In this document: in pieces, positions 6,155 through 31,558 of the stretch
Layout of the letters: each line of letters starts with the position of its first letter
How positions within the stretch are numbered: the first letter of the stretch is position 1
Assembly (NCBI GenBank): GCA_011526565.1
Contig: WYBL01000026.1
Coordinates: forward strand, 103,928-167,927
Source: Acidobacteriota bacterium
GTDB taxonomy: Bacteria; Acidobacteriota; Vicinamibacteria; Fen-336
Reading direction: 5' to 3'
DNA: 64,000 nt
Made by a program: the position numbers and the translations under genes
The notes under the pieces: model-generated
Databases searched by the model: none
What the model was told of the DNA's origin: nothing
Seen by the model: the letters and a program-made list of their open reading frames with translations, nothing else

Positions 6155-7312
<1,158 letters not shown>

Positions 7313-12169: not shown

Positions 12170-12588
12170 TGGCGGACTGGGTCGACCTGCACGAGGACTG
12201 GCCGGACCTGCGCGGCACCTTCCTGCACGCGTGGCCCGAGGCGGAGGTCGGCGCGCTGCGGGCGCGGCTGGAAGCGCGGGGCTTCCGCACGCTCTACGTC
12301 GACACCCGCGAGGGGAGCTTCCTCGACGGCCTGGCGGCGGGCCTGGGACGCGCGCGCGGCCCCGGGCTCGACGCCGCCAACGACCTGCTGCTCGACTGGG
12401 CGGGGCTCGACCGCGCGCCGCGCGCGGTGGTGTGGAGCGGCGCCGACGCCCTGGCCGCCCGCGACGCCCAGGCCTGTCTCGACGCCCTCTGGCTGCTCGA
12501 GGCGCTGGTCCCCTCCGACTACGCCGAGCCGCAGTGCGAGGTGTTCGTCGCGGGCGCGGGGCCCGCCTACCTCCGCCGCAGCACGTAG
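12169..12588 (+). CDS. Barstar-like ribonuclease inhibitor (immunity protein), start-coupled to the RNase gene (TGATG)
   Basis: It lies immediately downstream of the barnase-like gene with a 1-nt stop/start overlap. It is acidic, with CLDALWLLEAL resembling the barstar DALWD segment. The size (139 aa) is larger than barstar. Confidence 0.55.
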   Translation: MADWVDLHEDWPDLRGTFLHAWPEAEVGALRARLEARGFRTLYVDTREGSFLDGLAAGLGRARGPGLDAANDLLLDWAGLDRAPRAVVWSGADALAARDAQACLDALWLLEALVPSDYAEPQCEVFVAGAGPAYLRRST

Positions 12589-13400
12589 AAGGGGCGGCGG
12601 CGACCGCTCGCCTCGGTCGGGGCGAAGTCGGCGGCGACGTAGCCGCGGCCGAGGTACGCCGAGAGTGCGACCCGCACCTTGCGCTGCCAGTCGGAGGCGA
12701 CCCGCGGCGCGGCGGAGCTGAGCACGTCCCAGTCGGGCGGGATCTCGAGCAGCAGCGACTCGGCCTCGAGTTCCGTGCTGGGCTCGGAGGAGACCGGCCA
12801 GCCCGCCTTCCACACGACCTCGTTGACCGGCTCGCCGTCCGGGGTCGCGACGCTGCGCGGCAGTTCGCCGGCCGCGGCGCGCTCGCGGACCCGCTCGGAG
12901 TCCAGGTCCCAGCGCACGACCAGGCGGTCGGTGGGCAGCCCGTGATGCAGCGACGAGGTCGTGATGCCGTACATGTCGGGCACGAACTCCGGCGCGACGG
13001 CGCCGAGCCGGCGCAGGTTGAGGTTGGCGTTGCGCGCCTGGAGCGGGTCGAAGGTCCAGGTCACGAAGGACAGGCCGCGGGCCAGCGCTTCGTCGCGCTG
13101 CGCCCACTTGAGACGCGCTCCGATGCCCTGCGCCTGGCGGTTGGGCAGCACCGCCAGCATGTCGGAGTGCAGGTGCGGCACGCCGCCCTTGATCGCGGGG
13201 AACGCGTAGCAGAAGCCCACCGCGCGCCCGTCTGCGCCCTCGGCGAGGTGCACGATCCCGCCCGCGTGCACGGTGGCGATCAACTGGATCGCCGAGGTGA
13301 TCTCGAGGTCGTGCAGGCCCCACACGGCGCGCTGCAACTCGACGCACGCGTCGTAGTCGGCCCGCGACCCCGCGGGCCGGATGCGGATCTCTTCGCTCAT
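12567..13400 (-). CDS. GNAT-family N-acetyltransferase with C-terminal extension
   Basis: ATG start at MSEEIRIRPA. The acetyl-CoA motif region is VHLAEGADGRAVGFCYAFP...RQAQGIGARLKWAQRDEALARGLSFVTWTFDPL. Confidence 0.7.
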   Translation of the reverse strand: MSEEIRIRPAGSRADYDACVELQRAVWGLHDLEITSAIQLIATVHAGGIVHLAEGADGRAVGFCYAFPAIKGGVPHLHSDMLAVLPNRQAQGIGARLKWAQRDEALARGLSFVTWTFDPLQARNANLNLRRLGAVAPEFVPDMYGITTSSLHHGLPTDRLVVRWDLDSERVRERAAAGELPRSVATPDGEPVNEVVWKAGWPVSSEPSTELEAESLLLEIPPDWDVLSSAAPRVASDWQRKVRVALSAYLGRGYVAADFAPTEASGRRRPFYVLRRR

Positions 13401-13426
13401 GGGCGCGGAGTCTACCAAGCCGCGCG

Positions 13427-14392
13427 TCAGCGGCGGCGGCCGGTGCGATGGTCGGCTGCGGCAGCGGAGCGGTACCACTCGACCGCCTGCCGCAACCCGT
13501 CCATGAAGTCGACCCGCGGTTCCCACCCGAGCTCCGCGCGGGCGCGACGGCCGTCGCCGCACATGCGCCAGATCTCGTTCGGGCGGTCAGGCCGTGCCCG
13601 GACCTCGAGCGGCAGGCTCGATCCGGTCAGGGCATGCACCTGTTGCGCCACCTCGAGAACGGTCCGCTCCCGGCCGCTCGCCAGGTTGACGGGCCCCCGC
13701 GGCACCTGCTCCGCCACGGCCGCGGCCAGGATGCCGCGAACGAGGTCGCTCACGTGGTTGAACTCGCGAGTCTGGCGGCCCGACGAGATCCGCAGCGGCT
13801 GGCCGGCCAGGCCCGCGAGGATCAGCTCGGGAATCACCGCCTTCGCGGACTGGCCGGGACCGTAGGCGTTGAAGGGGCGGAGGATCACCACCTCGGGCCC
13901 GCCGGTCCGGCCCTGGAAAAGACGGCAGTACTGCTCGCCGGCCAGCTTGCTGACGCCGTAGGGCGAGGCCGGCTCGGGGGCGAAGCCCTCCTCGAACGGC
14001 ACCCGCTCCAGCCGTCCGTAGACCTCGGAGGTCGAGACGTGCACGAAGCGGCCGACTTCGCGGCACTCGTCGAGCAGGTTGGCCGTGCCCTTCGCGTTGA
14101 CGTCGAAGCACTCCTCGACCTGGACGAAGCTCTGCCCGACGTGGTTGTAGGCCGCGAGGTGGAACACCACGTCGACGCGGCGGCGCAGCGCCTCGCGCAG
14201 GGCCCCGCGGTTGCGCAGGTCGGCCTCGAGGACCTCGAGGTCCGTCCACACCTCGCGCAGCCGCGGGTTCCGCAGCGGATCGCGATAGCGCACGAGCGCC
14301 CGCACCGCCGCTCCGCCCTCGAGCAGCGCCTTCGTCAGCCACGAGCCGATGAACCCGGAAGCCCCCGTGACCAGGACCGCTCGGCCCTTCAT
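13427..14392 (-). CDS. NAD-dependent sugar epimerase/dehydratase (extended SDR; UDP-glucose 4-epimerase / dTDP-glucose 4,6-dehydratase-like)
   Basis: The glycine motif is MKGRAVLVTGASGFIGSWL. The catalytic motif is PASPYGVSKLAGEQY (YxxxK). There is an ATGA overlap with the upstream nucleotidyltransferase. Confidence 0.85.
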   Translation of the reverse strand: MKGRAVLVTGASGFIGSWLTKALLEGGAAVRALVRYRDPLRNPRLREVWTDLEVLEADLRNRGALREALRRRVDVVFHLAAYNHVGQSFVQVEECFDVNAKGTANLLDECREVGRFVHVSTSEVYGRLERVPFEEGFAPEPASPYGVSKLAGEQYCRLFQGRTGGPEVVILRPFNAYGPGQSAKAVIPELILAGLAGQPLRISSGRQTREFNHVSDLVRGILAAAVAEQVPRGPVNLASGRERTVLEVAQQVHALTGSSLPLEVRARPDRPNEIWRMCGDGRRARAELGWEPRVDFMDGLRQAVEWYRSAAAADHRTGRRR

Positions 14393-15111
14393 CGCCGCCA
14401 CTCCCGCATCCCGGGCCGGAAGCGGGCGCGAGCCTCGATCAGTTCGTCTGCGGTGTTGAACGTGAGGTGGTGGCCCCGGTGGCGGTGGGCCGCCAGCCGG
14501 CCGGCCCGGGCCAGCGCCTGGAGCAGGGCGTCGAGGTCGGTTCCGGACCGCAGCCGGTCGAGCGCGGCCGGCTCGCACAGCACGAACCCCACGTTCATCC
14601 AGTGGGGCAGCAGCGGCTTCTCGCGAAAGCGGCATACCCGGCCGTCGGCGGCGACCTCGGCGATCCCACCGGCCGCCCGCATCGGGACCACGGTGATGGT
14701 GGCCAGCGCCGCGCGCGCGCGATGGCGGCGGGCGAGCGCCCGCAGGTCCACGTCCGCCAGGGTGTCGCCGTAGCAGACGAGGACGCGGCCCGGGCAGTGG
14801 CGACGCGCGGCGATCAGGCGGTCGCTCATCGCCGCGGCCCCCGAGTCGACCACGACGACCTGGCGCCCGCGGCGACGCTCGCGGGAGGAGAAGGACGCGA
14901 ACGCCGCCGCTCCGTTTCCGACGGCGATCACGAAGCGCGTGATCCCCTGTCGCGCGAGGTCGTCGAGGAGCCGGCCCAGGATCGGCCGCCCGGCGAGCGG
15001 CACCAGCGGCTTGGGCACGAAGGCCGAGAGCGGGCGCAGGCGCCGAGCCTCGCCGCCGCACAGGATCACTGCGGTCAGGGAGTCGATTCCGGTTTCGGAG
15101 GCCGCGGTCAT
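14389..15111 (-). CDS. Sugar-phosphate nucleotidyltransferase (NDP-sugar pyrophosphorylase family)
   Basis: AVILCGGEARRLRPLSAFVPKPLVPLAGRPIL is the canonical NTP-transferase N-terminal signature. Confidence 0.8.
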   Translation of the reverse strand: MTAASETGIDSLTAVILCGGEARRLRPLSAFVPKPLVPLAGRPILGRLLDDLARQGITRFVIAVGNGAAAFASFSSRERRRGRQVVVVDSGAAAMSDRLIAARRHCPGRVLVCYGDTLADVDLRALARRHRARAALATITVVPMRAAGGIAEVAADGRVCRFREKPLLPHWMNVGFVLCEPAALDRLRSGTDLDALLQALARAGRLAAHRHRGHHLTFNTADELIEARARFRPGMREWRR

Positions 15112-15122
15112 CGGTCGCCGAG

Positions 15123-15142
15123 GCTAGCAGGCTCCTGCTAGC
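15123..15142. promoter_or_regulatory. Perfect 20-bp palindrome GCTAGCAGG-CT-CCTGCTAGC, a likely operator. It fills the ~38-bp divergent gap between the nucleotidyltransferase operon (minus) and the NTP_transf_5-like gene (plus).
   Basis: Read directly from the sequence. It sits 8 nt upstream of the ATG at 15150 and 12 nt from the minus-strand start at 15111. Confidence 0.5.
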
Positions 15143-15143
15143 T

Positions 15144-16250
15144 TTGGGCATGAGCGTGGCGCCGGCGGCCGGAGTCGTCGACTGCTGGCCACGGCCCGTC
15201 GAAGAACTCGTGCTCCAGGCCGGGCTCGGCGAAGGCGCGGCGCGAGACCGGGCCCTGTCGCAACTCGCCGGCCTCGACGTCACCGTCGAACGCCTGTCGC
15301 CCCAGGCGTTGCGCCTGCTCCCGCTCGCCCTGCAGGGAGCTCGCGCCGCCGGGGCTTCCGAGGCGCCGTGGATGGTGGCCGCGGAAGCCGTGTATGCCGG
15401 CTCCTGGCAGCGCCACGAACGCGCCTCGCCGCGCGTGGTCCGCGCCCTGCGAGCCCTCGCGGCCGCGGGCGTTCCCGTTCTCGTGCTGAAGGGCTGGGCG
15501 CTGGGCGACGTCTACGAAGACCCTGCGCTGCGGCCGGCCTCCGACCTCGACCTGCTGGTGCCCGCGGGCTCGTTCGAGGCCGCGGCCCGTGCGCTGGCCG
15601 GCGGAGGCTTTCGTCCACTCGCGGGCCCGGGCCCGACGGCGCACGCGCAGGCCTTCACCGCCCCCGACCTCGACGTCGACCTCCACCATCACGCGCTCGA
15701 GGAGTTCGTCGGCACCGCGCACGACGCCGCGCTGTGGGCCGACGCGGTCGCTTTCGACCTGTTCGGGCACGAGGCGCTACGGCTGGCCCCGATCGACCGG
15801 CTCCTGCTGACGTGCACCCACGGGCTGCGCTGGACGCCGGCCCCGGCTCTCCACTGGATCGCGGACGCGACGCTGGAGATCCGCACCCAGGGAGACGCGC
15901 TCGACTGGGATCGGCTCGCCGTGCGCGCCGAGGCCTTCGAACTCGCCTTGCCACTGCGGGCGGGCCTCGACTATCTCTCCGGGCTGGGCCTCGTGGTCGT
16001 GCCGCCGGAAGTGCTCCGCGCGCTCCACGCGGTCGGCGCACCGTGGGCCCGGCGGGTCGCGTTCGAAGCACGGCAGCGGGCCCCGGAGCGGCGCGGGCTG
16101 CTGCACGCCTGGGCGGTGCGCCACGAGTTCCGGAGACGGGCGCGGCGTGCGGGGTTCTCGCGCGCGCTGCACGCGGGGGGCTGGCGGCAGGACCTCGCCG
16201 GACTGTGGCGCGCGCTGCGCGTCTCGCTCGGGCTCAGCGCTCGCGGCTGA
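15144..16250 (+). CDS. NTP_transf_5-like (PF14907-type) uncharacterised nucleotidyltransferase. This is the family seen in kinase-containing lasso-peptide clusters. The probable true ATG is at 15150.
   Basis: ASDLDLLVPAGSFEAAARALAGGGF resembles the nucleotidyltransferase G[SG]xxDxD core. Size is about 365 aa. It is in genomic context with PqqD/HprK-like genes. Confidence 0.55.
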   Translation: MGMSVAPAAGVVDCWPRPVEELVLQAGLGEGAARDRALSQLAGLDVTVERLSPQALRLLPLALQGARAAGASEAPWMVAAEAVYAGSWQRHERASPRVVRALRALAAAGVPVLVLKGWALGDVYEDPALRPASDLDLLVPAGSFEAAARALAGGGFRPLAGPGPTAHAQAFTAPDLDVDLHHHALEEFVGTAHDAALWADAVAFDLFGHEALRLAPIDRLLLTCTHGLRWTPAPALHWIADATLEIRTQGDALDWDRLAVRAEAFELALPLRAGLDYLSGLGLVVVPPEVLRALHAVGAPWARRVAFEARQRAPERRGLLHAWAVRHEFRRRARRAGFSRALHAGGWRQDLAGLWRALRVSLGLSARG

Positions 16251-16965
16251 GCGGTCGTTGGCTTCCGCGCCCGCGGGCGACGGCGGCCCGCACGATCTCA
16301 CGCGCCGCGCGCGTTCGGCCGCGGACGATGCGGCTTCGAGAACGCTGCTGGAGCCGCCACACCATCGCGAGCAGACCCGGGACCCCGACGAACGTGGCCC
16401 GCTCACGCAGCCGCAGCATCAGGTCCCAGTCTTCCGACAACCGAAGGTGCGGAGCGTAACCGCCGACCGCCTTCAGCAAGCCGGTGCGGATCAGGCTCGC
16501 GGCATGGCAGATCCGGCCCGTCATCAGGTCCCACTGCGTGACCGGGGTCACGCCGATCAGCCGCGGCGGGCGCCGTCGGTCGGCGAACGTCTGGACGAGC
16601 AGGCCGCTCGCCGCGCCGGCGCCCGGGTTCGCGCGCAGCGCCTTCACCAGCGCAGACAGCGCTCCCGGCAGCAGCAGGTCGTCGGCGTCGCACGGGCTGC
16701 AGTAGGGTCCGCGCGCCAGCGCCAGCAGCCGGTTGCGGGTCGCCGCCGGAAACAGCCGCCGGCGATTGCGCAGCAGCCGCACCCGCGGATCGTGCCGCCA
16801 GGCGGCGAGCTTCGCCCAGGTGCCGTCCGTCGAGGCGTCGTCGCAGATCAGCAGCTCGAGGCGGACGCCGCGCTGCGACAACACGCAAACGATCTGCTCC
16901 TCGACCAGGTGCTCGGCGTTGCGGACGGCCATCAGCACGCTGACCTCGGGCCGGCGCTCGGTCAT
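16234..16965 (-). CDS. Family 2 glycosyltransferase
   Basis: VSVLMAVRNAEHLVEEQIVCVLSQ...LLICDDASTDGTW...SPCDADDLLLPGAL are the GT2 DxD motifs. ATGA overlap with upstream gene. Confidence 0.8.
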   Translation of the reverse strand: MTERRPEVSVLMAVRNAEHLVEEQIVCVLSQRGVRLELLICDDASTDGTWAKLAAWRHDPRVRLLRNRRRLFPAATRNRLLALARGPYCSPCDADDLLLPGALSALVKALRANPGAGAASGLLVQTFADRRRPPRLIGVTPVTQWDLMTGRICHAASLIRTGLLKAVGGYAPHLRLSEDWDLMLRLRERATFVGVPGLLAMVWRLQQRSRSRIVRGRTRAAREIVRAAVARGRGSQRPLSRER

Positions 16966-17666
16966 GGCCGGGTAGCTCGGCGTTGCCGTGCACGGCGGGC
17001 GAGGCTCAGGAAGGCGCGGGCCCAGTCCGGCCGCCGGCCACCGCGGGCCCGCCGCCGATAGACGTAGGTCAGCGCCCCCGGCACCAGCCGCAACTGCGTG
17101 ACCTCCGCGAGCTTCAACGTCAGGCTGACGCTGTCGAGTGGCGTGTCTTCGTCGTAGCCGCCGACGCCGAGCGCCAGCTCCCGGCGCAGCAGGGCGCCGG
17201 CGTGGTTGGCGGTGAACTCGAACAGGTCGGCGCCCGGGTCGTGCTGCCGGCCGCGCACCCACGGCGCGCGCTGCAGGCGCCTCCCGCGGCCCGTCTCCAG
17301 CATCAGGAAGCTGCCGTAGCAGTAACCGACCGCGGGATGGCGATCCAGGAAGCGGGCGAGGCGCGACACGCTGCCGGGCAGCAGCCAGTCGTCGGCGTCG
17401 CAAGGCATCACGTAGGCGCCGCGCGCCGCGCGCAGGAGCCGGTTGCGCACGGCGCCCACGGTGGTGCCGACCGCGTTGCGCAGCAGGCGCACGCGGGGGT
17501 CGCCGCGGAAGCGCTCCAGCTCGGCCCAGGTGCCGTCGGCCGAGCCGTTGTCGCAGGCGACCAGCTCGAAGCTCGCGTGGTCCTGGGCCAGCACGCAGCG
17601 CACCTGCTCCGCGACGAAGCGCTCGGCGTTGCGCGCCGGCATCAGCACCGAGACGCGCGGGCTCAA
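16962..17666 (-). CDS. Family 2 glycosyltransferase (second copy)
   Basis: VSVLMPARNAERFVAEQVRCVLAQ...LVACDNGSADGTW...MPCDADDWLLPGSV. The TTG start overlaps the PqqD-like stop (cgaTTGAgccc). Confidence 0.75.
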   Translation of the reverse strand: MSPRVSVLMPARNAERFVAEQVRCVLAQDHASFELVACDNGSADGTWAELERFRGDPRVRLLRNAVGTTVGAVRNRLLRAARGAYVMPCDADDWLLPGSVSRLARFLDRHPAVGYCYGSFLMLETGRGRRLQRAPWVRGRQHDPGADLFEFTANHAGALLRRELALGVGGYDEDTPLDSVSLTLKLAEVTQLRLVPGALTYVYRRRARGGRRPDWARAFLSLARRARQRRATRP

Positions 17667-18073
17667 TCGAGCTGGCCGAGGTACTTCAGGTTCCCGCGCT
17701 TCTCGAGGCGGGGCGCCCGATACGGCTGCGCGGCCGCGGCCCGCGCGCGCCGCGGCGCCGGAGCCGGATCGGCGAGAGTCCCCGGCTCGGCCAGCAGGCC
17801 CGCGGAGCGGAGCTGGCGGACGAACGCGTCGAAGTCCTTCGCCACCCGGGCCTCGGTGCCGCCGAGGGCCGCCGCCACCGCGGTGCAGATCGCCTCGCGC
17901 GTGGTGCGGCCGTCGAGCCGCTTCCAGATCGCGAGCGCCGCGCCGGCGAGTCCGTAGTACTCGCCGTTGGCCAGATCGAGCAGCATGCCTTCCTGCGGTC
18001 CGAACTCCTTGAACGGCACGTCGTCCCGGCGGCAGGGGAGCGCCGCGGGTGTTCGATTGCGATCTCGCGTCAT
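17663..18073 (-). CDS. PqqD-family peptide-binding chaperone (RiPP recognition element-like; lasso B1-like)
   Basis: VPFKEFGPQEGMLLDLANGEYYGLAGAALAIWKRLDGRTTREAICTAVAAALGGTEARVAKDFDAFVRQLRSAGLL follows the PqqD pattern. It has a Pro/Ala-rich tail. ATG at 18073. Confidence 0.7.
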   Translation of the reverse strand: MTRDRNRTPAALPCRRDDVPFKEFGPQEGMLLDLANGEYYGLAGAALAIWKRLDGRTTREAICTAVAAALGGTEARVAKDFDAFVRQLRSAGLLAEPGTLADPAPAPRRARAAAAQPYRAPRLEKRGNLKYLGQLD

Positions 18074-18096
18074 CCGCGGGAACGTAGCAGACGGGA

Positions 18097-18843
18097 ATGG
18101 GACCGGCAAAGAAGGTGGGGCCACGGCTGTTCGTCTTCGGGGGCTGCGACCCGCTCTCCGCGGGGGCGGCCGCTGCGCTCTCGCGGGCGATGCTGCGCCG
18201 TGCCTGCGCGGGTCCGCGCCCGCCCCGGCTCGGCCTGCTGGTGGCGGACGGCGTGGAGTCGGCGGACCTGGCCGGGTGGACGGCTCGCGCGCGCGGCTCC
18301 GGGCTGACGCTCGCCATCGCCGGCTTCGAGGACGTCCTGGCGGCCGCAGTCGCGGGCGACCTGGAGCTCGTGCACGTGCCGGCAGGCCACACCGCGCACC
18401 TGCTGCACCGCCTGGCCCCGTGGTCCGCGAGCCTGCGCGCTCGATGGGAGCGCGGGCTCGTGCTCTCGGGGCAGAGCGGCGGCGGGGCGTGTTTCGCGTT
18501 CCGGCTTTGGAGCGCGTCGCGTTTCGGGACGCCGGAATGGATCGACGGCCTTGGCTTCCTGCCCGTGGCACTGGGCGCGCACTTCGATCAGCCGATGTGG
18601 GCGACGCCCGAGTTGCCGGTGCCGGGGTTCGACGGGGACGTGCTGGCGCTCGATCACCACGCCGTGCTCGACTGGACGCCGGCGCGCGTCGCGTGCGTCG
18701 CCGCCCAGCCTGGCGCTCGAGCCTGGCGCCTGCGGGCGGGGCGGCAGCCGACGCCACTGCCAGCGCGCGATCTCAGCCGCATCCTCGCGTGGTGCACGCG
18801 CGGACGCCGCGCGCTCGGCCGGCTCGTCGGCCGCGCCCTGTAG
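18097..18843 (+). CDS. Peptidase S51-family protein (dipeptidase E/cyanophycinase-like; class I glutamine amidotransferase-like fold)
   Basis: Three blocks align with PepE. LFVFGGCDPLSAGAAAAL aligns with IIVGGGNTFQLL. LVLSGQSGGGACFAF aligns with YIGWSAGANLAC (Ser nucleophile). GLGFLPVALGAHFDQ aligns with LDLFPLQINPHFTN (His). The gene is divergent from PqqD with only a 24-bp gap. Confidence 0.6.
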   Translation: MGPAKKVGPRLFVFGGCDPLSAGAAAALSRAMLRRACAGPRPPRLGLLVADGVESADLAGWTARARGSGLTLAIAGFEDVLAAAVAGDLELVHVPAGHTAHLLHRLAPWSASLRARWERGLVLSGQSGGGACFAFRLWSASRFGTPEWIDGLGFLPVALGAHFDQPMWATPELPVPGFDGDVLALDHHAVLDWTPARVACVAAQPGARAWRLRAGRQPTPLPARDLSRILAWCTRGRRALGRLVGRAL

Positions 18844-18854
18844 AATCCGCGCGC

Positions 18855-19799
18855 GTGGAGACCTGGTACGACGTCTTCGGGCGGCGCTTCGTGGTCCGCT
18901 CTCAGCGTCGAGCCGTGCTCGAGCGGCTGCGCGGCAACGCCGCCTGGAGCCGGCTCGAGGCGCCCCCCGCGCCGAAGGCGGACGCCGAGATCGAGGTGCT
19001 GTTCCCGGCGGAGCCGAACCCGCTCCGCGAGGTGCAGTCCTTCGGCAACGAGACCTTCTTCCTCCACGCCAGCCGCCACAAGCTGATCACGGGACACTGC
19101 GCGGGCCGCCCCTGGCAGGTCCACGTGCAGAGCTTCGTCGCGGATCCCTTCCGCGTGGCTCACGCGATGGTGGTGCCGACGCTGCAGGACCTGGTCGAGC
19201 GCCGCGGGCTCTCGTCGCTGCACGCGGCCGCGGTCGCGTCCCGCGGCCGTGGCGTCCTGCTGTGCGGGGACACCGGCAGCGGCAAGAGCACGACCGCGCT
19301 CGCGCTCGTCGCCCAGGGGTTCGACTTCCTGACCGACAACGACGCGTACCTCGAGCTCGCGCGGGGTGCGGTCCGGGTGCGCAGCCGGGGCGCGAGGGTC
19401 GGCCTGCGGCCGGCAGCGGCCCGGCTGTTGCCCGGCGCGCCGGCGCTCGCTCGCTTCCCGCTGCGCGGGCGCGGCGCGCAGCGCAAGCGACAGGTGGACC
19501 CGGGCGCGATGTGGCCGCGCGCCTGCAGGAGCGCGGCGACCGTTCGGCTGCTGCTGTTCCCCCGCGTCGGCCGCGGCGGCCGCAGCCGGCTGCGGCCACT
19601 GTCGCCGACAGAGGCGCTGTCGAGGCTGCTCGACTCGTACCCGCTCGGTGGCAGCGTGCGAGGCGTGATCCCCGACGGCTGGGCCCAGCAACGGCGCTTC
19701 GAGCGCCTGTCCCTGCTCGTCGCCACGGCACCCGCGTACGCGCTGGACCTCGCTCCCGAGCTGGCGACGCTGGGCGAGCAGGTGCGAGAGCTGCTGTGA
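18855..19799 (+). CDS. HPr kinase C-terminal-domain-like P-loop kinase (HprK-related kinase). GTG start.
   Basis: LHAAAVASRGRGVLLCGDTGSGKSTTALALVAQGFDFLTDND matches HprK [25 protein letters not shown]. Confidence 0.7.
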   Translation: METWYDVFGRRFVVRSQRRAVLERLRGNAAWSRLEAPPAPKADAEIEVLFPAEPNPLREVQSFGNETFFLHASRHKLITGHCAGRPWQVHVQSFVADPFRVAHAMVVPTLQDLVERRGLSSLHAAAVASRGRGVLLCGDTGSGKSTTALALVAQGFDFLTDNDAYLELARGAVRVRSRGARVGLRPAAARLLPGAPALARFPLRGRGAQRKRQVDPGAMWPRACRSAATVRLLLFPRVGRGGRSRLRPLSPTEALSRLLDSYPLGGSVRGVIPDGWAQQRRFERLSLLVATAPAYALDLAPELATLGEQVRELL

Positions 19800-20884
19800 A
19801 GCGCCGCGGGCTGCGGCTCGCCTTCCAGCTCCATCCCCGGCTGTTCGGCGGCCAGGAGCGCTTCCTGCTGCGGCTGCTGGGCGCCCTGCGCGAACGGGGC
19901 CACGCCTGCTTCGTCGTTTCGGCGCCCGCGGGGCGCGTGCTGCGCGAGTTCGAGCGGGCCGGGTTCGAGTCGCTGCGGCTGGCCGGCCGCGACTTCGGCC
20001 GCGACCACGAACGCCTGGCTTCCTGGTTGCGCCAGCAGCGGGCGGACGTGGCGCAGACCAACCTCTACGCGCCGCTGGCGGGGCTGGCTGCCGCCGCTGC
20101 GGGCGTGCCCCACGTCTGGAGGGTCGGTGGCCATCCCGACGTGGCCCTCGCCGACATGGCACCGGCTCCCCGGCGGGGCCTGCTGCGGCTGCTCGCCTCG
20201 CTCTCCGCCGTGGTCGTGTGCAACTCGCGCTTCGTCGCCGGCGGGTTGCGCAACGGCGGTGTGCGCCGGCCTCGGGTGATTCCCAACGGCGCTCCGATCC
20301 CCCCTGCCGCGAGCCCGCGAGCCGCGGGCGACACCGTGCGGTTCGCGCTCGCCGCCCACTTCTATCCGGTGAAGCGCCACGCCGACTTCGTCCGCGCCGC
20401 CGCGTTCGTCGCGCGCCGCGTGCCCGCCCGCTTCCGGATCTACGGCTCGAGCTTCGGCCAGCCGGAGATGCGGCGTCACGAGCGCGCGGTCCGCGACCTG
20501 GTCCGGCGCCTGGGATTGCAGCGCCAGTTCGACTTCCGCTGCGCTCGCGCCGAGGGCGCGATCGCCGCGTGGAGCGACGTGGCCGTGCTGCCTTCGGTCG
20601 GCGAGAGCTGCAGCAACGCGGTGCTGGAGGCGATGGCCGCCGGCAGCGCCGTGGTGGCCGCTCGCTCCGGGGGCAACCCCGAGCTGGTGGTCCACGGGCG
20701 CAGCGGCCGGCTTCATCCACCGGGCGACTGGCGCGGGTTGGCGGCCGAGATGCTCGTCCTTGCCGCCGACCCGCGCCAGCGCGAGAAGCTCGGTCGTGCG
20801 GCTGCCCGGCGAGTGGTCGCGCGCTTCTCGATCGAGCGCTGCGCGTCGGCCTACGAGGAGCTCTACGGCGCGTTGGCCGGCTGA
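19796..20884 (+). CDS. Family 4 (GT-B, group 1) glycosyltransferase. The GTG start overlaps the upstream stop.
   Basis: The C-terminal GT4 signature is PSVGESCSNAVLEAMAAGSAVVAARSGGNPELVVHGRSGRL (E-x7-E region). Confidence 0.8.
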   Translation: MKRRGLRLAFQLHPRLFGGQERFLLRLLGALRERGHACFVVSAPAGRVLREFERAGFESLRLAGRDFGRDHERLASWLRQQRADVAQTNLYAPLAGLAAAAAGVPHVWRVGGHPDVALADMAPAPRRGLLRLLASLSAVVVCNSRFVAGGLRNGGVRRPRVIPNGAPIPPAASPRAAGDTVRFALAAHFYPVKRHADFVRAAAFVARRVPARFRIYGSSFGQPEMRRHERAVRDLVRRLGLQRQFDFRCARAEGAIAAWSDVAVLPSVGESCSNAVLEAMAAGSAVVAARSGGNPELVVHGRSGRLHPPGDWRGLAAEMLVLAADPRQREKLGRAAARRVVARFSIERCASAYEELYGALAG

Positions 20885-22526
20885 GCCAGCTCGCGCTCGA
20901 GCGCCTCCGCGACGACCTTCGCCGCCAGTGCCTGGCCCGCCTCGTTGAAGTGCCCGTCCCACGGCAGGTAGAGGTTGCGCGCCCTGGCGGCGTGGCGGAA
21001 CGCCTCGCTTGGATCGACCCAGGTGATGCGCTGCTCCTCGCAGAACGCGCGCAGCCGGTTCCGCTCCCGATCCAGGTCGAAGTCGGACGCGGCGAGGTTC
21101 CAGCGCCGTGCGAGCACCGACCAGTCCTGGGCCTGCACGGCGTGCCGCTGGGGCAGGTAGACGAGGACGAAGCGGGCGCCGCGTTCCTGCGCGGTCCGGT
21201 TCATCGCCGCGAGCAGCGGCAGCGAGACGGCCCACGAGTCGGCCGCCGGTGGCAGTTCCTCCCGATACGCGAAACCGAGGTTGGGAAACCCGTCGAACAG
21301 CAGCTTGCGGGGTCCCCGCTGGACGAGCGCCCCGCCGCTCACCGTCAGTTCGCCGCGGAACTCGTCGCTTCGCTCCGGGCCCGGCGGCGGCCGCAGCGCC
21401 CGCAGGGAGCGGAGGGCCAGCACGGCCTGCAGCGCCGGATGCGGCGCCCGGGGCGGAGCGGCGGTCGCGGCGATCGACGGATCGCCGTCGCGCGGATACG
21501 TCCACTGGCGCCACTGGCCGAACCGCACCCGGGCGGCCGGCCGTGCGACCCTGCGCAGCCGTCCGTCGGCGTCGAGGCGGATCGCACCCTGCGCCCCGCA
21601 GCCGAGCCAGCCCTGCAGGAGGTCGTTCCCCGAGAGGCCGAACAGCACGATGTCCGGTCGCAATGCGGCGCCGTGACGCTGCAGGTAGAGGGCGCCGTAG
21701 CAGGGATCCGAGACCTCGGCGTTCCAGACCCGCACCGGGCGCCGCAGGGCGGCGACGAGGCGGCGCTGGACCAGCGGACCCAGGAACGCGTGCTGGTCGA
21801 CGCCGAAGCCGATCCCGAACGAGTCGCCGAGGTTCAGCACGGTCAGGCCGCCCGGCAACGGCGGGGTGTCCGGCTCCTCGTCGTTGCGCAGCCCGATCCG
21901 GTTCGTCGCGAACCAGACGCGGCGTTCCGCATCCAGGCCCGAGCGCGCGATCCAGGTTCGTACCGACGGCCGCAGGCGCCCGCCGGGGCCAATCAGCGGT
22001 TCCTGCAGCGGGAAGAGGAACGCGAAGGTCCTGCGGTCGCCCCATCGCGGCACACCCTCGGACCGCTCCGAGCCGAGGCGCGCTGCGAACTCGGGGGCGA
22101 GCAACCCGCTCGCGGCGAGGGCCAGGCTGGCCAGCACGAGCAGTCCCTCGCCGCTGCGGCGCGACACGGCCCACGCCAGCGTCGCGAGATTCGCCGTCCA
22201 GAGCCAGGCGAGCAACCCGGCCACCTGGGAAGGGACCGCGATCGCCCACGCAGCCGCTCCCGCCACGGCGACCGCGCGGATCGCCACCCACCGGCGCGGC
22301 CGGTCCGCGACGGCCGCGGCGAGGGCGGGGAAGCGCCACGCGGCGAGCGCCTGGCCGCACGCGAGCGCCGCCAGCGGCAGCATCACGCCCACCGCATAGC
22401 GCCAGGACCATCCGAGCAGCACAGGGTCGTCACTGGCGTGCCGGCCGGCCAGGGCCAGCGAGACGGCCCCCAGCAACGCAACCGCACCTGCGGTGGCCGC
22501 CGCCAGCGCCGTCGGCACTCGCGGGC

Positions 22527-22530
<4 letters not shown>
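20863..22530 (-). CDS. Membrane-anchored SGNH/GDSL hydrolase-family protein (AlgJ/PatB-like acyl-esterase/acetyltransferase candidate)
   Basis: The N-terminal ~200 aa is polytopic. Block I is GLTVLNLGDSFGIGFG and block V is YLPWDGHFNEAG. The TTG start overlaps the ABC stop (tcTTGAgccc). Confidence 0.7.
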
Positions 22531-24163
<1,633 letters not shown>

Positions 24164-24167
<4 letters not shown>

Positions 24168-25930
24168 GCGGCGTGCCCCGTGGCGGGGCCGTCGACGTGG
24201 CGGCGATGCCAGGCCTCGATCACGAACAGGGCCCAGAGCCGATAGCCGTGCAGGGCCCGCAGCCGCGCATGTTCGTCCCACAGCCGCTGCACGTAACGCT
24301 GGCGGAACAGGCCGCGCTGCCGGCACCGGGGCGAAAAGAGGAGGTCCGCCACCTGGTCGCGGAACGGTCCCGGCTGCCAGAGCCAGGCATCGATCGGGAG
24401 CGCGAACCCGCGCTTGCGGCGCGTGAGCACGGGCGGCGGCAACAGCGCCGCAAAAGCGCGCCGCAGCAGCTTCTTGCCTGAGTGCCGGTCCACGCGCCAG
24501 GCGACCGGAAGGCCGGTGGCGTGGTCGGCGAAGGGGCGGGACAACGCGGGCACGCGGATCTCCAGCCCGGCCAGCATCCCGGCCCGGTCGCACTTGTGCA
24601 GCAGGTCCGCGGGCAGATAGCGGCGCAGGTCGTCGCTGAGCCGACGCTCGCGGCGGCTGGCCAACCGCGCGTGTGGAGGCAGGGACGCCGCCGGCTGCCA
24701 CGCGCCGAGCCGGCGGCGGAAGGCGGCTGACGGCAGGCCGCCCAGCGGAGTTCCCGCGCCGGGCCACGCGGCCAGTGCGTCGGCGGCGAGATCGAGACGG
24801 CGGTGCCAGAAATTGCCGCCATGCAACTCGTCGAGGCCTTCACCTCCCAGCACGGCCTTGACGTGGCCGCGCGCGAAGCGGGCCAGCAGGTGGGTCGGCA
24901 CCACCGAGGCGTCCGCGAACGGCTCGTCGAGGTCCTCGAAGAGCGCGGGGAGCGCGCGGGCGGCGGTCGTGGCGTCGATCGAGATCTCGTGGTGGGTGGT
25001 GCGGAAGCGCTGCGCGACCAGCCGCGCGAACGGCCCCTCGTCGAATCCCGGCGCGGCGATGCGGGCGGAGAAGGTGGGCAATCCGGGGCAGTGGCGGCTG
25101 GCGAGGGCCACGACGGCGCTGGAGTCGAGCCCACCGCTGAGGAACACGCCGACGGGGCCGTCGGCGCGCAAGCAGCGTTCGACCGAGGCGTCCAGGCGCC
25201 GGACCAGCGTGCGCGCCGCGTCGGCGGGCCGCCCGGCCCGCGCGGGGGTTCGCGCGGGCGGAGGCTCGTGGTACCGGCGCAGGGTGCTCGCTCCGTCCGC
25301 CTCGACGACCAGGACGTGTGCGGCCGGGAGGCGGCGCACGTCTCGCCAGATCGACCGCGTGTCGTCGATCGCGAGGCGCGTCAGGCAGTCCGCCAGCGCC
25401 CGCGGATCGACGCGTCGATCGAAGCCGGGAGCCGCCGCCAGCGCCCCGGGCTCGGACGCGAAGCGCAGCCGCCGCGCGTCGCGGACGTAGTAGAGCGGCT
25501 TGATCCCGAACGGGTCGCGGGCCAGCACCAGCCGCCGGCGCCGCGCATCCCACAGCGCGAAGGCGAACATCCCGCCGATCCGCTCGACGAAGCGGAGGGG
25601 ATCGTCCTCGTAGAGGTGCAGGATCACCTCGCAATCGCTGCCCGTGCGCAACGAGTGGCCGCGCCCGGCGAGCCGCACCCCCTGCTCGCGGGCGTCGTCC
25701 ACGTGGCCGTTGCAGACGAGCCACAGGCTCGCGTCCTCGTTGCTCAGCGGCTGGGCTCCCCCCGCGGCATCGATCACGGCGAGACGCCGATGGCCGAGAC
25801 CCAGCGTCCCGTCGAAGTGGAAGCCCGCGCCGTCGGGGCCGCGGTGGGCCAGTCGACGCGTCATCTCGCGCACGGCCCGCCGATCGACCGGCGCCCCGTC
25901 GAACCGCCACTCGCCCGCGATCCCGCACAT
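24164..25930 (-). CDS. Asparagine synthetase (glutamine-hydrolysing) family protein with intact Cys1 glutaminase domain. It is a candidate sugar/peptide amidotransferase or lasso-cyclase-like enzyme.
   Basis: MCGIAGEW is an Ntn Cys1 start. The PP-loop is VGVFLSGGLDSSAVVAL. The AsnB C-terminal domain is present. ATG at 25930. Confidence 0.85.
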
Positions 25931-25986
25931 CCGGCGCCAACGATATACGGATTGGCCGCGGGCGCCGCGGGCTAGGATCCCGGATC

Positions 25987-26784
25987 TTGATCCAGGCAGG
26001 ACGTGCAGCGGAGGACTCGACGCTGGTGCTCGGAGCCGCCGGTCGCGTCGGGCGCGTGCTCGCCGCGCGACGGGTCGGGGGCCCGCGGGCCGCCTTCGTC
26101 GACGTGGACGCCCTGGACGTGAAGGAGCCCGTCGCCCTGGCGCGGGCCGCGCGCTCCCACGAGCGCTGGGTTCACCTGGCGAGCGAACTGCGCACGGCCG
26201 CGGTCGATCCCGCTGCCGCCGACGCCGAGGCCTGGCGGTGGCGGCGGTCGCACGTCGAGATGGCGCGCCGCGTGCTCGCGGCTGCCGTGGCCGGCGGCGT
26301 GCGCCAGGTGGTGCTGGCCAGTTCGGTCCGGGCGGCGGACCAGGATGCCGCCGGTGCCGGCCCCGACAGGTTGACGCACGCCGGTATGAACCGCGCGATC
26401 GAGGAGGCGGGTCGCGAGGCGTCACGCTCCGGACCCGACGTCGCCTGCATTCGGCTCGGCAGCGTCTCGTGGCCCGACCGGCCCCGCAGCCCCGACGAGG
26501 CGCTGTGGCTCTCGCACGAGGACTGCGCGGCCGCGTTCGCGGCCGTGCTCGCCTCGCCCCCGGTCGGCGGCCGCTTCACGGCGTTCACGGCCGTCTCGGC
26601 GCTGGCGGGTACGCACCCGGACACGGCGAACCCCTTCGGCTGGCAACCACACACCAGGCGAGTGGGATGGCGCCGCCGGGCCCACGGGCGGGTCGTCGAC
26701 CTCAAGGGCCGGCTGCTCGACTCGCCGCTGGGACCGTTCCTCCGCGAGTGTCAGCGCTCCGGACGGCGCCTGGTGGGTTCCTGA
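25987..26784 (+). CDS. NAD(P)-binding Rossmann-fold protein (atypical SDR/NmrA/epimerase-like). TTG start inferred.
   Basis: TLVLGAAGRVGRVLAARR glycine-rich loop. It is divergent from the Asn-synthetase gene by 56 bp. Confidence 0.55.
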   Translation: MIQAGRAAEDSTLVLGAAGRVGRVLAARRVGGPRAAFVDVDALDVKEPVALARAARSHERWVHLASELRTAAVDPAAADAEAWRWRRSHVEMARRVLAAAVAGGVRQVVLASSVRAADQDAAGAGPDRLTHAGMNRAIEEAGREASRSGPDVACIRLGSVSWPDRPRSPDEALWLSHEDCAAAFAAVLASPPVGGRFTAFTAVSALAGTHPDTANPFGWQPHTRRVGWRRRAHGRVVDLKGRLLDSPLGPFLRECQRSGRRLVGS

Positions 26785-26805
26785 CGGCGCCTCGGGGACC
26801 CGGGC

Positions 26806-29148
26806 TCAGGCGGTCGGCGGCGCTTCCTTTCCGGAGGCCGTCGCGCCGCGCCACAGGAAGTGGGCGAGGGCGGGCAGCAGCAGGATCGCACCGAGCATGT
26901 TGAACAGGAACAGGAAGGTCAGCAGGATGCCCATGTCGGCCTGGAACTTGAGCGGCGAGAAGATCCAGGTGGCGACGCCCATCGCCAGCGTCAGGCCGGT
27001 GAAGATCACGCCGTTGCCGGTCGTCGTGAGCGCGTCGTGGTAGGCCTGCTTCAGCGGCTCGCCGGCCTCCAGCAGCCCGGCCATGCGCCCGAACAGGTAG
27101 ATCCCGTAGTCGACGCCGATGCCCACGCCGAGCGCGGCCACCGGCAGCGTCGAGACCTTGAGTCCGATCTCGAGCACCGCCATCAGCGCGTAGGCGAGCA
27201 GCGAGACGAGCGCGAGCGGCAGCACGATGCAGACCGCGATGCGCCAGGAGCGGAAGCTCAGCAGGCACAGGGCGATCACCGCGGCGAACACGCCGCCGAG
27301 GATCGGGAACTGGGCCGCGGCCACCTCCTCGTTGGTCGCCGCCATCACCCCCAGGTTGCCGGTCGCCAGCCGGAACTTCACGTCGGGGTTGCCGTGGGAG
27401 GCCTGGTAGGCCTTCACCTCGGCGACGATGCGGTCGATCGTCTGCGCCTTGTGATCTGTGGTGAAGATCAGCACCGGCATCACGCTGCACTCGCCGTTGA
27501 GCAGGCCGGTCGAGGTGTCGACGTAGGTGACGGCCTGGGCCAGCAGCGAGGTGTCGCGCGGCAGCACCCGCCACTCCAGGCTGCCCTCGTTCCAGCCCGC
27601 GGTCAGCAGCTTGGCGACCGTCGGCAGCGCGACGACCGACTGCACGCCGGGCACGTTGCGCATCTCCCACTCGAAGCGGTCGATCACGCTCATCACCGCG
27701 TGGTCGGTGCAGGCCTGGGCCGGCACCTCGGTGATCACCGTCAGCAGGTCGACGCCGATCGAGAAGTGGCGGGTGACCACGTCGGTGTCGATGTTGTAGC
27801 GCGAGTCGGCGTGCAGCTCGGGCACGCCGGCGTGCAGGTCGCCGATCTGCACCTTGTTCGACGTCGGGTAGCCCCAGGCCAGCAGCAGCAGGGCGATGCC
27901 CGCCACGACCAGCGCCCGCCGCCGCTCGGTCAGCCGCGACAGCGCGTGCCACAGCGGGTCGACGTGGGCGTGACGGCGCTTGAGCTGGAGCAGGTAGATC
28001 TCGTCGTGGTGGACCCACGACAGCAGCAGCGGGACCAGCAGCATGTTGATGATCAGGATCATCGCCACGCCGAGCGAGGCCGTGATCGCCATCTCGCGGA
28101 TCATCTGGATGTCGATCAGCAGGATGGTCACGAAGCCGATGCAGTCGGTCAGCAGCGCGACGCTGCCCGGCACCAGCAGCTTGCGGAACGCCGCGCGGGC
28201 CGCCGGTTCTCCCGTGTGGCCCAGCCAGAACTCGGCGCGGTGCACGCTGATCATCTGCACGCCGTGGCTGACGCCCACGGCGAACACCAGGAACGGGACC
28301 AGGATCGACATCGGGTCGATCCCGTAGCCGAGCAGCGGCAGCAGGCCCAGCGTCCACACCACGGCGGTCACGGAGGAGACCAGCGGGATCACGGTCAGCG
28401 CGATCGACTGCGAGTAGACGAACACGAACACCGCGGTCACGAAGAAGGCGATCGCGAAGAACAGCACGACCCGCCGCGCCCCGGACGCGATGTCGCCGAT
28501 CACCTTGGCGAAGCCCAGGATGTGGTAGTCGAAGGCGACGCCGACGCCGTTCGTCGAGTGCTTCAGGCGGATCGCCTCGAGCTGGTCGGCGACGTGGATG
28601 TAGTCGAGCCGGGCGCCGGTGCGCGGGTCGATCTCGAGCAGCTCGGCGCTGACCAGGGCCGCGGTGAAGTCGTTGGCGACCAGGCGGCCGACGTAGCCCG
28701 ACTTGAGCACGTTGCGCCGTACCTTGGCCAGGCCCTCGGCCGTCGGCTCGAAGTCGGCCGGCACCACGTTGCCGCCCGAGATGCCGTCCTCGACGACCTC
28801 CGTGAAGCGCACGTTGGGGGTGAACAGCGAGGAGACCCGCGCGCGGTCGACGCCGGGAATGAAGAACACGTCGTCGGTGACGGACTTGAGCGTCGCGAAG
28901 AACTGGGGCGTGAAGATGTCGCCCTCGCGCACCTTGAGCGCGATCAGCACGCGGTTGGCGCCGCCGAACTCGTCGCGGTACTGCATGTACGTTCGCATGT
29001 ACTCGTGCTGCAGCGGCAGCAGCTTGGCGAAGCCCGCGTCGACGCGCAGCCGCGAGGCGCTGGCGCCGAGCAGCACGGTGACCACGGCAAACAGCACGAG
29101 CACCAGCCGGCGGTGACCGAAGAGGAAGTTCTCGAGCCGGGCCTTCAT
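26806..29148 (-). CDS. MMPL/RND-superfamily exporter (SSD-containing; HpnN/MmpL-like)
   Basis: It has twelve-TM architecture with two large periplasmic loops. The conserved GxxxD/VSHGVQM-type regions are present. The RND-like C-terminal half is FPILGGVFAAVIALCLL... ATG at 29148. Confidence 0.85.
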   Translation of the reverse strand: MKARLENFLFGHRRLVLVLFAVVTVLLGASASRLRVDAGFAKLLPLQHEYMRTYMQYRDEFGGANRVLIALKVREGDIFTPQFFATLKSVTDDVFFIPGVDRARVSSLFTPNVRFTEVVEDGISGGNVVPADFEPTAEGLAKVRRNVLKSGYVGRLVANDFTAALVSAELLEIDPRTGARLDYIHVADQLEAIRLKHSTNGVGVAFDYHILGFAKVIGDIASGARRVVLFFAIAFFVTAVFVFVYSQSIALTVIPLVSSVTAVVWTLGLLPLLGYGIDPMSILVPFLVFAVGVSHGVQMISVHRAEFWLGHTGEPAARAAFRKLLVPGSVALLTDCIGFVTILLIDIQMIREMAITASLGVAMILIINMLLVPLLLSWVHHDEIYLLQLKRRHAHVDPLWHALSRLTERRRALVVAGIALLLLAWGYPTSNKVQIGDLHAGVPELHADSRYNIDTDVVTRHFSIGVDLLTVITEVPAQACTDHAVMSVIDRFEWEMRNVPGVQSVVALPTVAKLLTAGWNEGSLEWRVLPRDTSLLAQAVTYVDTSTGLLNGECSVMPVLIFTTDHKAQTIDRIVAEVKAYQASHGNPDVKFRLATGNLGVMAATNEEVAAAQFPILGGVFAAVIALCLLSFRSWRIAVCIVLPLALVSLLAYALMAVLEIGLKVSTLPVAALGVGIGVDYGIYLFGRMAGLLEAGEPLKQAYHDALTTTGNGVIFTGLTLAMGVATWIFSPLKFQADMGILLTFLFLFNMLGAILLLPALAHFLWRGATASGKEAPPTA

Positions 29149-31544: not shown

Positions 31545-31558
31545 CTGTCCTTTCGCAC

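Follow-up and report, generated by a model that had tools for sequence, protein, structure and literature searches.

Genome mining for peptides that are made by the ribosome and modified after translation (RiPPs) relies on a precursor gene lying beside the gene for a RiPP recognition element (RRE), and a cluster that lacks such a gene is dropped or labelled an orphan. A cluster that raises this problem lies at positions 13427-26784 of a 64,000-nucleotide stretch of Acidobacteriota DNA (contig WYBL01000026.1, assembly GCA_011526565.1; hereafter the window). It encodes a PqqD-family RRE protein, an HprK-like kinase and a PF14907 nucleotidyltransferase. Where is the peptide on which these proteins would act? 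A first-pass annotation of the window offered two answers: either the peptide is encoded elsewhere or the RRE module serves a non-peptide or protein substrate. Its premise that no stand-alone precursor gene is present stands, but the either/or omits a third option, towards which the evidence leans: the PqqD gene carries a leader-like peptide of its own, in frame at its 3′ end and corresponding to residues 118-136 of the product (positions 17666-17722, minus strand). What had escaped notice is that the PqqD open reading frame (ORF) extends about 40 codons beyond the PqqD domain.

The RRE protein carries a conserved leader-like tail

The RRE protein (136 amino acids; 17663..18073, minus strand; PF05402, E=1.1e-15) consists of the RRE domain (approximately residues 29-96, positions 17786-17989 of the same strand), a variable linker (residues 97-117) and a conserved tail (residues 118-136). 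Its closest solved relatives, by sequence and by fold, are the leader-bound lasso B1 proteins TbiB1 and TfuB1; the profile match to TbiB1 has E=1.9e-12 and the fold similarity corresponds to template modelling (TM) scores of 0.82-0.84. Residues D80, F84, L88 and L93 of the RRE cleft align with D70, F74, M78 and L83 of LppB, which line the Tyr and Val/Leu pockets in the LppB-LppA structure (PMC13381572). F84, L88 and L93 are invariant.

The tail, Y118-RAPRLEKRGNLKYLGQL-D136 (17666..17722, minus strand), is composed of YxxPxL followed by RGNLK[YF]LGQLD and is a candidate fused precursor or scaffold peptide. Its sequence, YRAPRLEKRGNLKYLGQLD, fits the motif [Y/W]xxPx[L/V/I/F/A] that is bound by discrete RREs of lasso peptides and of linear polyphosphorylated peptides (LPP) (PMC13381572). 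A comparison with the RRE protein of L004, an orthologous locus, revealed a variable linker and then a near-identical end, PYRAPRL(E/H)KRGNLKYLGQLD. In a set of 11 sequences with 43-99% identity, the last 11 residues, RGNLK[YF]LGQLD, never vary and Y118, P121 and R122 hardly vary, while the RRE domain is conserved only to about 50-60% and the linker is variable. Purifying selection is strongest at the extreme C-terminus. At four loci the last 11 codons contain at least nine synonymous and no non-synonymous differences; what selection preserves is therefore the peptide sequence, not the DNA. A library-wide profile search added five more representatives, at the 50%-identity level, with the same C-terminal end. 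One of them comes from L017, a locus of a 41%-GC organism, where the tail KGNLKYLGQLD is attached to an RRE that is 34% identical.

In an AlphaFold2 model of the RRE protein, built on a 9-sequence alignment (mean predicted local distance difference test score, pLDDT, 79.6), residues 122-128 form a strand with pLDDT of about 87; confidence is low in the linker that precedes this strand and falls again in the C-terminus that follows. With the Tyr numbered −16, the strand occupies positions −12 to −6 and overlaps the leader strand of LppA, which spans −12 to −7 in the LppB-LppA crystal structure (PMC13381572). Set against the LPP consensus, the tail has Leu at −5, Tyr or Phe at −3 and the C-terminal Asp136 at +3. 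Thirteen residues follow the motif Leu, and a ring-forming arrangement is absent.

A tail variant ending in WRKPTLEHYGNLRMITPLN was observed in protein P0096 (loci L018 and L019); it is of the same length and has the GNL core, with a C-terminal Asn for Asp. Two modifications suggested by the tail sequence were considered and set aside. A lasso-like macrolactam between Lys130 and Asp136, which have a 7-residue spacing, was dropped, as Lys130 is Arg in P0074 and the glutaminase of the Asn synthase homologue is intact. Phosphorylation of Tyr131 is unlikely because several homologues have Phe at that position.

No separate precursor gene is present in the window

Since the window has a G+C content of about 74%, genes were called from the third-position GC (GC3) frame signal combined with Pfam matches, and not from ORF lists. 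The Pfam scan covered 51 of the approximately 58 window genes, and the window-wide domain negatives given below refer to these 51. The region 13427-26784 contains 14 contiguous genes. Four junctions are non-overlapping: 15112-15149 (38 bp), 18074-18096 (23 bp), 18844-18854 (11 bp) and 25931-25986 (56 bp); at all remaining junctions genes overlap by 4-22 nt. Start codons were tested against orthologues. The long PqqD start at 18073 is backed by a kept N-terminus, PCRRxDVPFKEFGP, and the start of the SGNH/AlgX-like gene at 22530 by an orthologue alignment that begins at residue 1. Only the gene starting at 25987 has a possible later start, at 26026 (39 bp further on), which would widen the preceding gap to about 95 bp. 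The four gaps of at most 56 bp described in the first-pass annotation were thus recovered, the largest growing to about 95 bp if the alternative start is used. Dense packing is the norm across the whole window, so the packing of the cluster is in itself unremarkable.

The divergent RRE and S51-like peptidase genes are separated by only 23 bp (18074-18096), and both long starts are supported by homology. Promoters of these two genes must therefore lie inside coding sequence, or else their transcripts must be leaderless.

A scan of positions 11000-30500 for ORFs of 18-120 amino acids overlapping called genes by less than 60% returned none between 12.5 and 27 kb, in agreement with the earlier claim that there is neither a separate precursor gene nor space for one. 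A precursor hidden in an intergenic gap of the cluster (at least 18 amino acids, less than 60% overlap) is ruled out by this result. Alignment with L004 revealed no conserved small ORF between the AsnB-type amidotransferase gene and the Rossmann-fold gene. The only real small gene near the cluster encodes a 78-amino-acid CDGSH protein (11428-11664) and is unrelated, as is a 32-amino-acid ORF at 44759-44857.

In a six-frame scan of the whole window, no ORF showed the lasso leader pattern YxxPx[LIVMF]x8[TSI] with a core of 5-45 amino acids behind it. Motif scans thus rule out a lasso-type precursor elsewhere in the window, and the earlier statement that no lasso-like core is encoded holds window-wide. 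When the window was scanned for [YWF]xxPxΦxxxG, the RRE tail was the only credible match. With a GC content of 74%, alternative frames often stay open over long distances and ORF statistics alone are not decisive, which would allow a short precursor ORF in an alternative frame of an annotated gene to be missed. We give this explanation almost no weight: none of the alternative-frame ORFs bears the leader motif, and there is none in the homologous cluster of the 41%-GC organism either. The first-pass annotation had itself named a missed short precursor overlapping an annotated gene as the finding that would overturn its conclusion; the tail of the PqqD gene comes close to this.

Tail-less RREs co-occur with separate motif-bearing peptides

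The tail-less RREs of loci L002, L006 and L012 co-occur with separate small ORFs that bear the motif. No stand-alone motif ORF was found at six tail-bearing loci (the window, L004, L013, L015, L016 and L017), the five other than the window being searched from the RRE or kinase gene outwards over 10 kb in both directions, or as far as the contig goes. In L012 a 58-amino-acid ORF (7813-7989, plus strand; ...RRPYERPRIVKG...) is located immediately upstream of the kinase gene. In L006 an ORF at about 6925-7040 (minus strand; ...TYKKPAIVKHGDLSFIKIGLS) lies beside ScmC/ScmD-type genes. An ORF at about 1750-1850 of L005 (minus strand; ...SYKKPVLRRLGLLRRLTRFTF) adjoins the kinase gene; the contig of L005 stops short of the RRE gene. 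A 24-amino-acid ORF at about 20580-20650 of L002 (minus strand) is nearly identical to the L005 ORF, and two near-identical 20-residue ends, Y[KR]KPVLRRLGLLRRLTRFTF, are found in separate loci. None of these small ORFs had been called or annotated; the loci are Conexibacter-like, Omnitrophota and other metagenomic ones. The small ORFs are likely precursors of cyclase-free N-B1-B2-K modules. The peptides of L002, L005 and L006 end 20 residues after the Tyr, compared to 19 in the window tail, and the L002/L005 peptide has Thr at −1 and at +3 in LPP numbering. The B2 peptidase domain PF13471 is present in L002 and L012. In L002 the gaps flanking the N-B1-B2-K module (7.6-8.2 and 10.9-11.9 kb) contained no convincing precursor, and the sole motif-bearing ORF is the one described above, about 10 kb from the module.

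Distant precursors therefore do occur, and our view of the genome under study is limited to 64 kb. A conventional precursor might then act in trans from elsewhere in the genome, in which case the tail would be autoinhibitory or regulatory and would compete for the cleft. Such an arrangement seems very improbable to us. There are no candidates in the 64-kb window and none within the searched surroundings of the five other tail-bearing loci, which include the 41%-GC locus, where small ORFs are easily seen. Moreover, the most conserved part of the whole protein is the extreme C-terminus of the tail, past the RRE-binding motif, and a mere competitor would not need it.

The pattern extends beyond close homologues. 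A census of the 150 best RRE-related representatives, drawing on proteins P0079-P0223 and counting the motif as [YWF]xxPxΦ, revealed 44 proteins with a tail of at least 25 amino acids past the last RRE domain, 30 of which contain the motif. The tails fall into several families, ending in ...GNLKYLGQLD, in ...TD(M/L)QxLLLLDPIHEVxxxGWP, in ...GG(S)HYW[WYF]P[STN] or in Ser/Gly-rich sequences, and several of the motif-bearing tails end in core-like sequences. Some relatives contain two or three RRE-plus-motif units in tandem, and proteins of about 780 amino acids join RREs with an HprK-like domain. According to a 2025 survey, 21% of PF05402 proteins are larger than a discrete RRE and have no other domain, for which no cause was given there. 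A literature search for RRE-precursor fusions, tail motifs or the Haft family names returned nothing relevant.

The cluster is conserved as a unit

The same cluster is found at the same chromosomal site in L004, a contig of a Vicinamibacteria metagenome-assembled genome, with the left flank from GCV_T to GNAT conserved. A second orthologous cluster is present in L016, a 102-kb contig. The right flank beyond the Rossmann-fold gene is different in each of the three loci. Two sugar-nucleotide genes at the left end, encoding an NAD-dependent epimerase/dehydratase (13427-14401, minus strand; Pfam) and a sugar-1-phosphate nucleotidyltransferase (14389-15111, minus strand; Pfam), are both present in the window, whereas L016 has only the epimerase gene and L004 has neither. 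Given this variation on the left and the locus-specific right flanks, the conserved unit starts with the PF14907 gene and ends with the Rossmann-fold gene; the variation also suggests that sugar donor supply is accessory. The RRE protein, the HprK-like kinase, the PF14907 enzyme and the MsbA-like exporter are all present in the window, L004 and L016.

More distant loci, L013 and L015, retain the same partner genes. The 41%-GC locus L017 retains the PF14907 gene, the RRE gene, two genes of family 2 glycosyltransferases (GT2), an intact AsnB gene, a family 4 glycosyltransferase (GT4) gene, the HprK-like gene, which is frameshifted in that assembly, and the S51-like gene. No match to the exporter was found within the 20-kb locus of L017.

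Codon-usage log-odds per codon are 0.2-0.5 for cluster genes and 0.7-0.9 for flanking genes, with a 15-gene training set that itself included five cluster and three flank genes. The lower score of the cluster genes may reflect low expression or foreign origin. Despite it, the cluster occupies one chromosomal site in three related genomes.

Relation to known systems

The presence of a B1-type RRE with the PqqD fold is the one feature in which the cluster agrees with the definition of a lasso peptide cluster. A precursor with YxxPxL, Thr at −2 and a core starting with Gly, Ala, Ser or Cys and having Asp or Glu at 7-9 was absent from the six-frame scan of the window. Among the 51 scanned genes there was no match to the B2 transglutaminase-type peptidase PF13471, nor was there a signal-peptidase-type leader peptidase, an exosortase or a second RRE. 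The Asn synthase homologue of the cluster is an AsnB-type glutamine-dependent amidotransferase (588 amino acids; 24164..25930, minus strand; GATase_7, E=1.5e-38; Asn_synthase, E=1.6e-82). Its N-terminus, MCGIAG, keeps Cys2, and matches to both GATase_6 and GATase_7 are strong. It passes the TIGR01536 equivalog model (378 bits, cut-off 267) and fails the lasso cyclase models NF033535 (214.6 bits, cut-off 525) and NF033561 (62 bits, cut-off 300). With the glutamine amidotransferase intact and a B2 peptidase missing from the scanned genes, the region does not qualify as a lasso cluster, and the lasso framing of the first-pass annotation fails on the same two points.

The closest known kind is the LPP clusters, described as restricted to Bacillota and composed of LppA/K/B/S/D/N (Popov et al. 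2026, PMC13381572). Both have a lasso-B1-type RRE, an HprK-like kinase, a PF14907 enzyme and an MsbA-like exporter without a macrolactam cyclase, and both are surrounded by glycosyltransferase and polysaccharide genes. LPP precursors are separate proteins of 35-200 amino acids with the N-terminal consensus YxxPxVLxHQxIxFET|xxS, in which Tyr is at −16, cleavage occurs after −1 and Ser+3 is polyphosphorylated (PMC13381572). The window tail shares with this consensus the YxxPxΦ motif, an aliphatic residue at −5, an aromatic one at −3 and the 19-residue span from the Tyr to the modified position. The differences are equally clear. In the window the peptide forms the C-terminus of the RRE protein, position +3 is a C-terminal Asp and not Ser, and the putative peptidase is S51-like in contrast to the SpI-like (archaeal-type signal peptidase I) LppS. 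The core of the window cluster, unlike that of LPP clusters, includes the gene for an intact AsnB-type amidotransferase, and the hosts are Acidobacteriota (Vicinamibacteria-like) and an unrelated low-GC lineage, compared to Bacillota for LPP.

Next closest are the kinase/nucleotidyltransferase-tailored lasso clusters of the paeninodin/pseudomycoidin type. In these, as in the window, a B1-type RRE, an HprK-like kinase, a PF14907 protein, an Asn-synthase-family protein and an ABC (ATP-binding cassette) exporter occur together, and the pseudomycoidin cluster likewise has no B2 peptidase; tailoring by the K and N proteins is treated in PMC8498205, which cites Zhu 2016 and Zyubko 2019. Unlike these clusters, the window has neither a lasso precursor nor a ring-forming core, and its Asn synthase homologue retains Cys2 with the complete glutaminase domain and scores under the cut-offs of the cyclase models. 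The window cluster shares the LPP/lasso-K/N core and the leader motif and lacks the features that define either family: a separate Ser+3 precursor, an SpI or B2 peptidase and a cyclase. What it adds, as far as comparison of sequences goes, is the RRE-peptide fusion, the S51-like peptidase and the genuine amidotransferase.

An HprK-related P-loop protein and a PqqD-family chaperone are also combined in Haft's HPr-rel-A system (TIGR04352/TIGR04353) and in the SynChlorMet cassette (ScmC/ScmD), and the separate peptide of the Scm-type locus L006 resembles the window tail. The window proteins nevertheless score far below the equivalog cut-offs of these systems (47.5 bits against 200 for the kinase and TIGR04352, 20.9 against 35 for the RRE protein and TIGR04353 (PqqD_rel_X), and 28 against 100), and the cluster, unlike those systems, has no radical SAM genes.

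These matches bear on the explanation that the region is an ordinary exopolysaccharide (EPS) or surface-glycan locus, in which the PqqD protein, kinase and nucleotidyltransferase have a non-RiPP role, as in HPr-rel-A, and the tail makes an unrelated contact. The best NCBIfam matches of the amidotransferase and of the GT4 protein are indeed XrtA/PEP-CTERM EPS models, the kinase and RRE protein weakly match HPr-rel-A models, and LPP clusters, too, are embedded in capsule loci (PMC13381572). All these scores, however, are far under the curated cut-offs (for the EPS models, 417 against 817 bits for the amidotransferase with TIGR03108 and 108 against 409 for GT4 with TIGR03088). No exosortase, PEP-CTERM domain, Wzx/Wzy, Wza or priming transferase was detected by Pfam in the 51 genes, and the tail fits the leader motif in sequence and in spacing, with the RRE cleft conserved. 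We consider a plain glycan locus improbable.

Mycofactocin and PQQ (pyrroloquinoline quinone) biosynthesis provide an analogy. There a PqqD-type RRE holds a short peptide of which only the last few residues are modified, and a dedicated peptidase frees a small product; in the case of mycofactocin the product is glycosylated by a GT2 enzyme. In LysW the handle is an acidic residue at the C-terminus, and pearlins are likewise built on scaffold or carrier peptides. It is an analogy only: the enzyme families differ, and the window cluster has no radical SAM, peptide aminoacyl-tRNA ligase (PEARL) or ATP-grasp genes. To our knowledge, a fusion of the peptide to the RRE occurs in none of these systems.

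A proposed precursor fused to the RRE as candidate substrate

We tentatively favour the explanation that the RRE gene contains the missing precursor as an in-frame extension and that the tail is presented to the cluster enzymes as a candidate substrate. In broader terms, the orphan peptide-modifying enzymes probably act on, or via, the RRE protein's own tail. The "protein substrate" option of the first-pass annotation would thus survive in one form, in that the substrate may be the RRE protein itself.

As suggested by predicted secondary structure and its confidence, Y118xxP121xL123 would dock in cis in the RRE cleft as an added β-strand, leaving the last 6-9 residues of the tail exposed. The RRE-tethered end could then be offered to the HprK-like kinase, the PF14907 enzyme, the AsnB-type amidotransferase and the GT2 and GT4 glycosyltransferases. 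The S51-like peptidase would stand in for the B2 or SpI leader peptidase and may free a small modified C-terminal fragment. The product would be exported by the MsbA-like ABC protein, and, once outside the cytoplasm, its glycan could be modified by the SGNH/AlgX-like protein. Chemical modification of the tail, its site and the order of the steps are inferences. Asp136 is our best guess for the reactive residue, because its spacing matches that of the LPP phospho-Ser(+3) and because AsnB and S51 are aspartate-directed families. AsnB enzymes are known to activate the carboxylate of aspartate, and aspartate is where S51 enzymes, such as aspartyl dipeptidase and cyanophycinase, cleave.

Several observations weigh against a modified tail. 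Its invariant part has no Ser or Thr, and the characterised HprK-like RiPP kinases are strictly Ser-specific, the S3T and S3Y variants of LPP being inactive (PMC13381572); Tyr131 is Phe in some homologues. Only three residues lie past the LPP-aligned cleavage site, which makes for a tiny "core", and cleavage of the tail would use up one 136-amino-acid protein per product. The AlphaFold2 model rests on an alignment of nine sequences, the S51 assignment is sub-threshold for the window protein itself, whose own model is poor, and the relatives are all metagenomic and the support computational. Finally, invariance of the tail is equally expected of a docking or activating element.

The last point leads to the possibility that the tail is a built-in leader acting as an adaptor or activator and not as a substrate. 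It would occupy the cleft permanently, and its invariant end would recruit or activate the kinase, nucleotidyltransferase and peptidase, which would act on a substrate without a leader, such as a growing glycan, a lipid-linked intermediate or some other protein. Such an arrangement would be the natural counterpart of engineered leader-enzyme fusions. The conservation and docking evidence fits it equally well, the lack of Ser and Thr for a Ser kinase to modify is no difficulty for it, and it accords with the richness of the cluster in glycan genes, including an extracytoplasmic SGNH/AlgX-like protein typical of polysaccharide modification. A title cited in PMC8498205 indicates that pseudomycoidin can be made without a leader or leader peptidase. 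On the other hand, relatives that carry the motif on separate peptides of 24-58 amino acids are hard to explain as pure adaptors, and core-like ends are seen in other families of RRE-tail fusions. A priming phosphoglycosyl transferase, a flippase or a polymerase, any of which would define an independent glycan acceptor, is absent from the cluster, and the peptidase homologue is a conserved core gene. Overall, we hold the pure adaptor role to be possible but somewhat doubtful.

If a precursor or leader can indeed be fused to the RRE, a class of clusters that seem to lack a precursor gene becomes interpretable and directly testable, with the substrate in hand as a tagged RRE protein. LPP-type kinase/nucleotidyltransferase/RRE chemistry would then reach Acidobacteriota and other lineages, in combination with an S51 peptidase and a genuine amidotransferase. 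One may speculate further, with distinctly less assurance, that the RRE-precursor fusion is a widespread, overlooked RiPP architecture. The RRE would be a self-presenting scaffold, and the Gln-Leu-Asp end, notably Asp136, a handle for amidation and phospho- or glycosyl chemistry with release by an Asp-directed S51 peptidase. If true, the small glycosylated products derived from such peptides, in Acidobacteriota and further afield, would form a new class. Many "orphan" RRE clusters would then be accounted for, as would overlong PF05402 proteins without another domain, providing a concrete hypothesis for the 21% of the 2025 survey (compare the motif in 30 of the 44 long tails above).

Other genes of the cluster

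The PF14907 (NTP_transf_5) nucleotidyltransferase (15150..16250, plus strand; E=5e-34) belongs to the family of PsmN and LppN, whose role in pseudomycoidin is covered in PMC8498205. Two small GT2 glycosyltransferases are encoded at 16234-16965 and 16962-17666 on the minus strand (PF00535, E=1e-21 and 4e-25). The second gene is translationally coupled to the stop codon of the RRE gene through a TTGA overlap, and both are kept beside the tail-bearing RRE in L004, L013, L015, L016 and L017.

The S51-like serine peptidase homologue (248 amino acids; 18097..18843, plus strand) matches PF03575 below threshold (E=3e-4; 20.9 bits, cut-off 23.9). All seven members of its family match PF03575, the best with 2.4e-39, and Ser127, His162 and Asp164 are invariant in the family. 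The gene occupies the position of B2 or SpI leader peptidase genes in related clusters. The AlphaFold2 model of the protein is poor (pLDDT 62), and a sequence search of PDB with it gave no match.

The HprK-like (ScmC-type) P-loop kinase homologue (314 amino acids; 18855..19799, plus strand; PF07475, E=1.7e-6) has an invariant P-loop, GDTGSGKST, and few close relatives; its homologues are assigned to Pfam PF27840 (ScmC) in precomputed annotation. The GT4 glycosyltransferase (19796..20884, plus strand) matches Glyco_trans_1_4 (7e-22) and Glyco_transf_4 (5e-17). It is followed by the gene for a membrane-anchored SGNH/AlgX-like protein (20863..22530, minus strand; ALGX, 2.5e-10; Lipase_GDSL_2, 1.5e-9) with a hydrophobic N-terminal region of about 200 amino acids, a probable extracytoplasmic O-acyl(acetyl)transferase or esterase. 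The exporter (22527..24167, minus strand; ABC_tran, 2.6e-30; ABC_membrane) is an MsbA/CydD-like ABC protein in which the transmembrane and nucleotide-binding domains are fused; its top NCBIfam matches are MsbA, CydD and type I secretion models. The last gene of the conserved cluster on the right, kept in L004 and L016, encodes a Rossmann-fold (GxxGxxG) protein that resembles epimerases and short-chain dehydrogenases/reductases (25987..26784, plus strand). This protein has a VLGAAGRVG sequence and weak NCBIfam epimerase-like matches, and the Pfam scan gave no match for it.

Flanking genes

To the left of the cluster, at 11723-12588, a gene for a barnase-like ribonuclease (PF00545) is followed, with a 1-nt overlap, by one for a barstar-like inhibitor; the pair is kept in the flank of L004 and L016. 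Directly to the right, at 26806-33457, lie genes for an MMPL transporter and for BNR/Ycf48-like, DUF1329 and DUF1302 proteins, a four-gene set that L004 and L016 do not have at this place. Further on, at 33768-37104, the gene for a multihaem cytochrome c with paired CXXCH motifs adjoins that for an MtrB/PioB-type outer-membrane porin, and the pair looks like an extracellular electron-transfer module.

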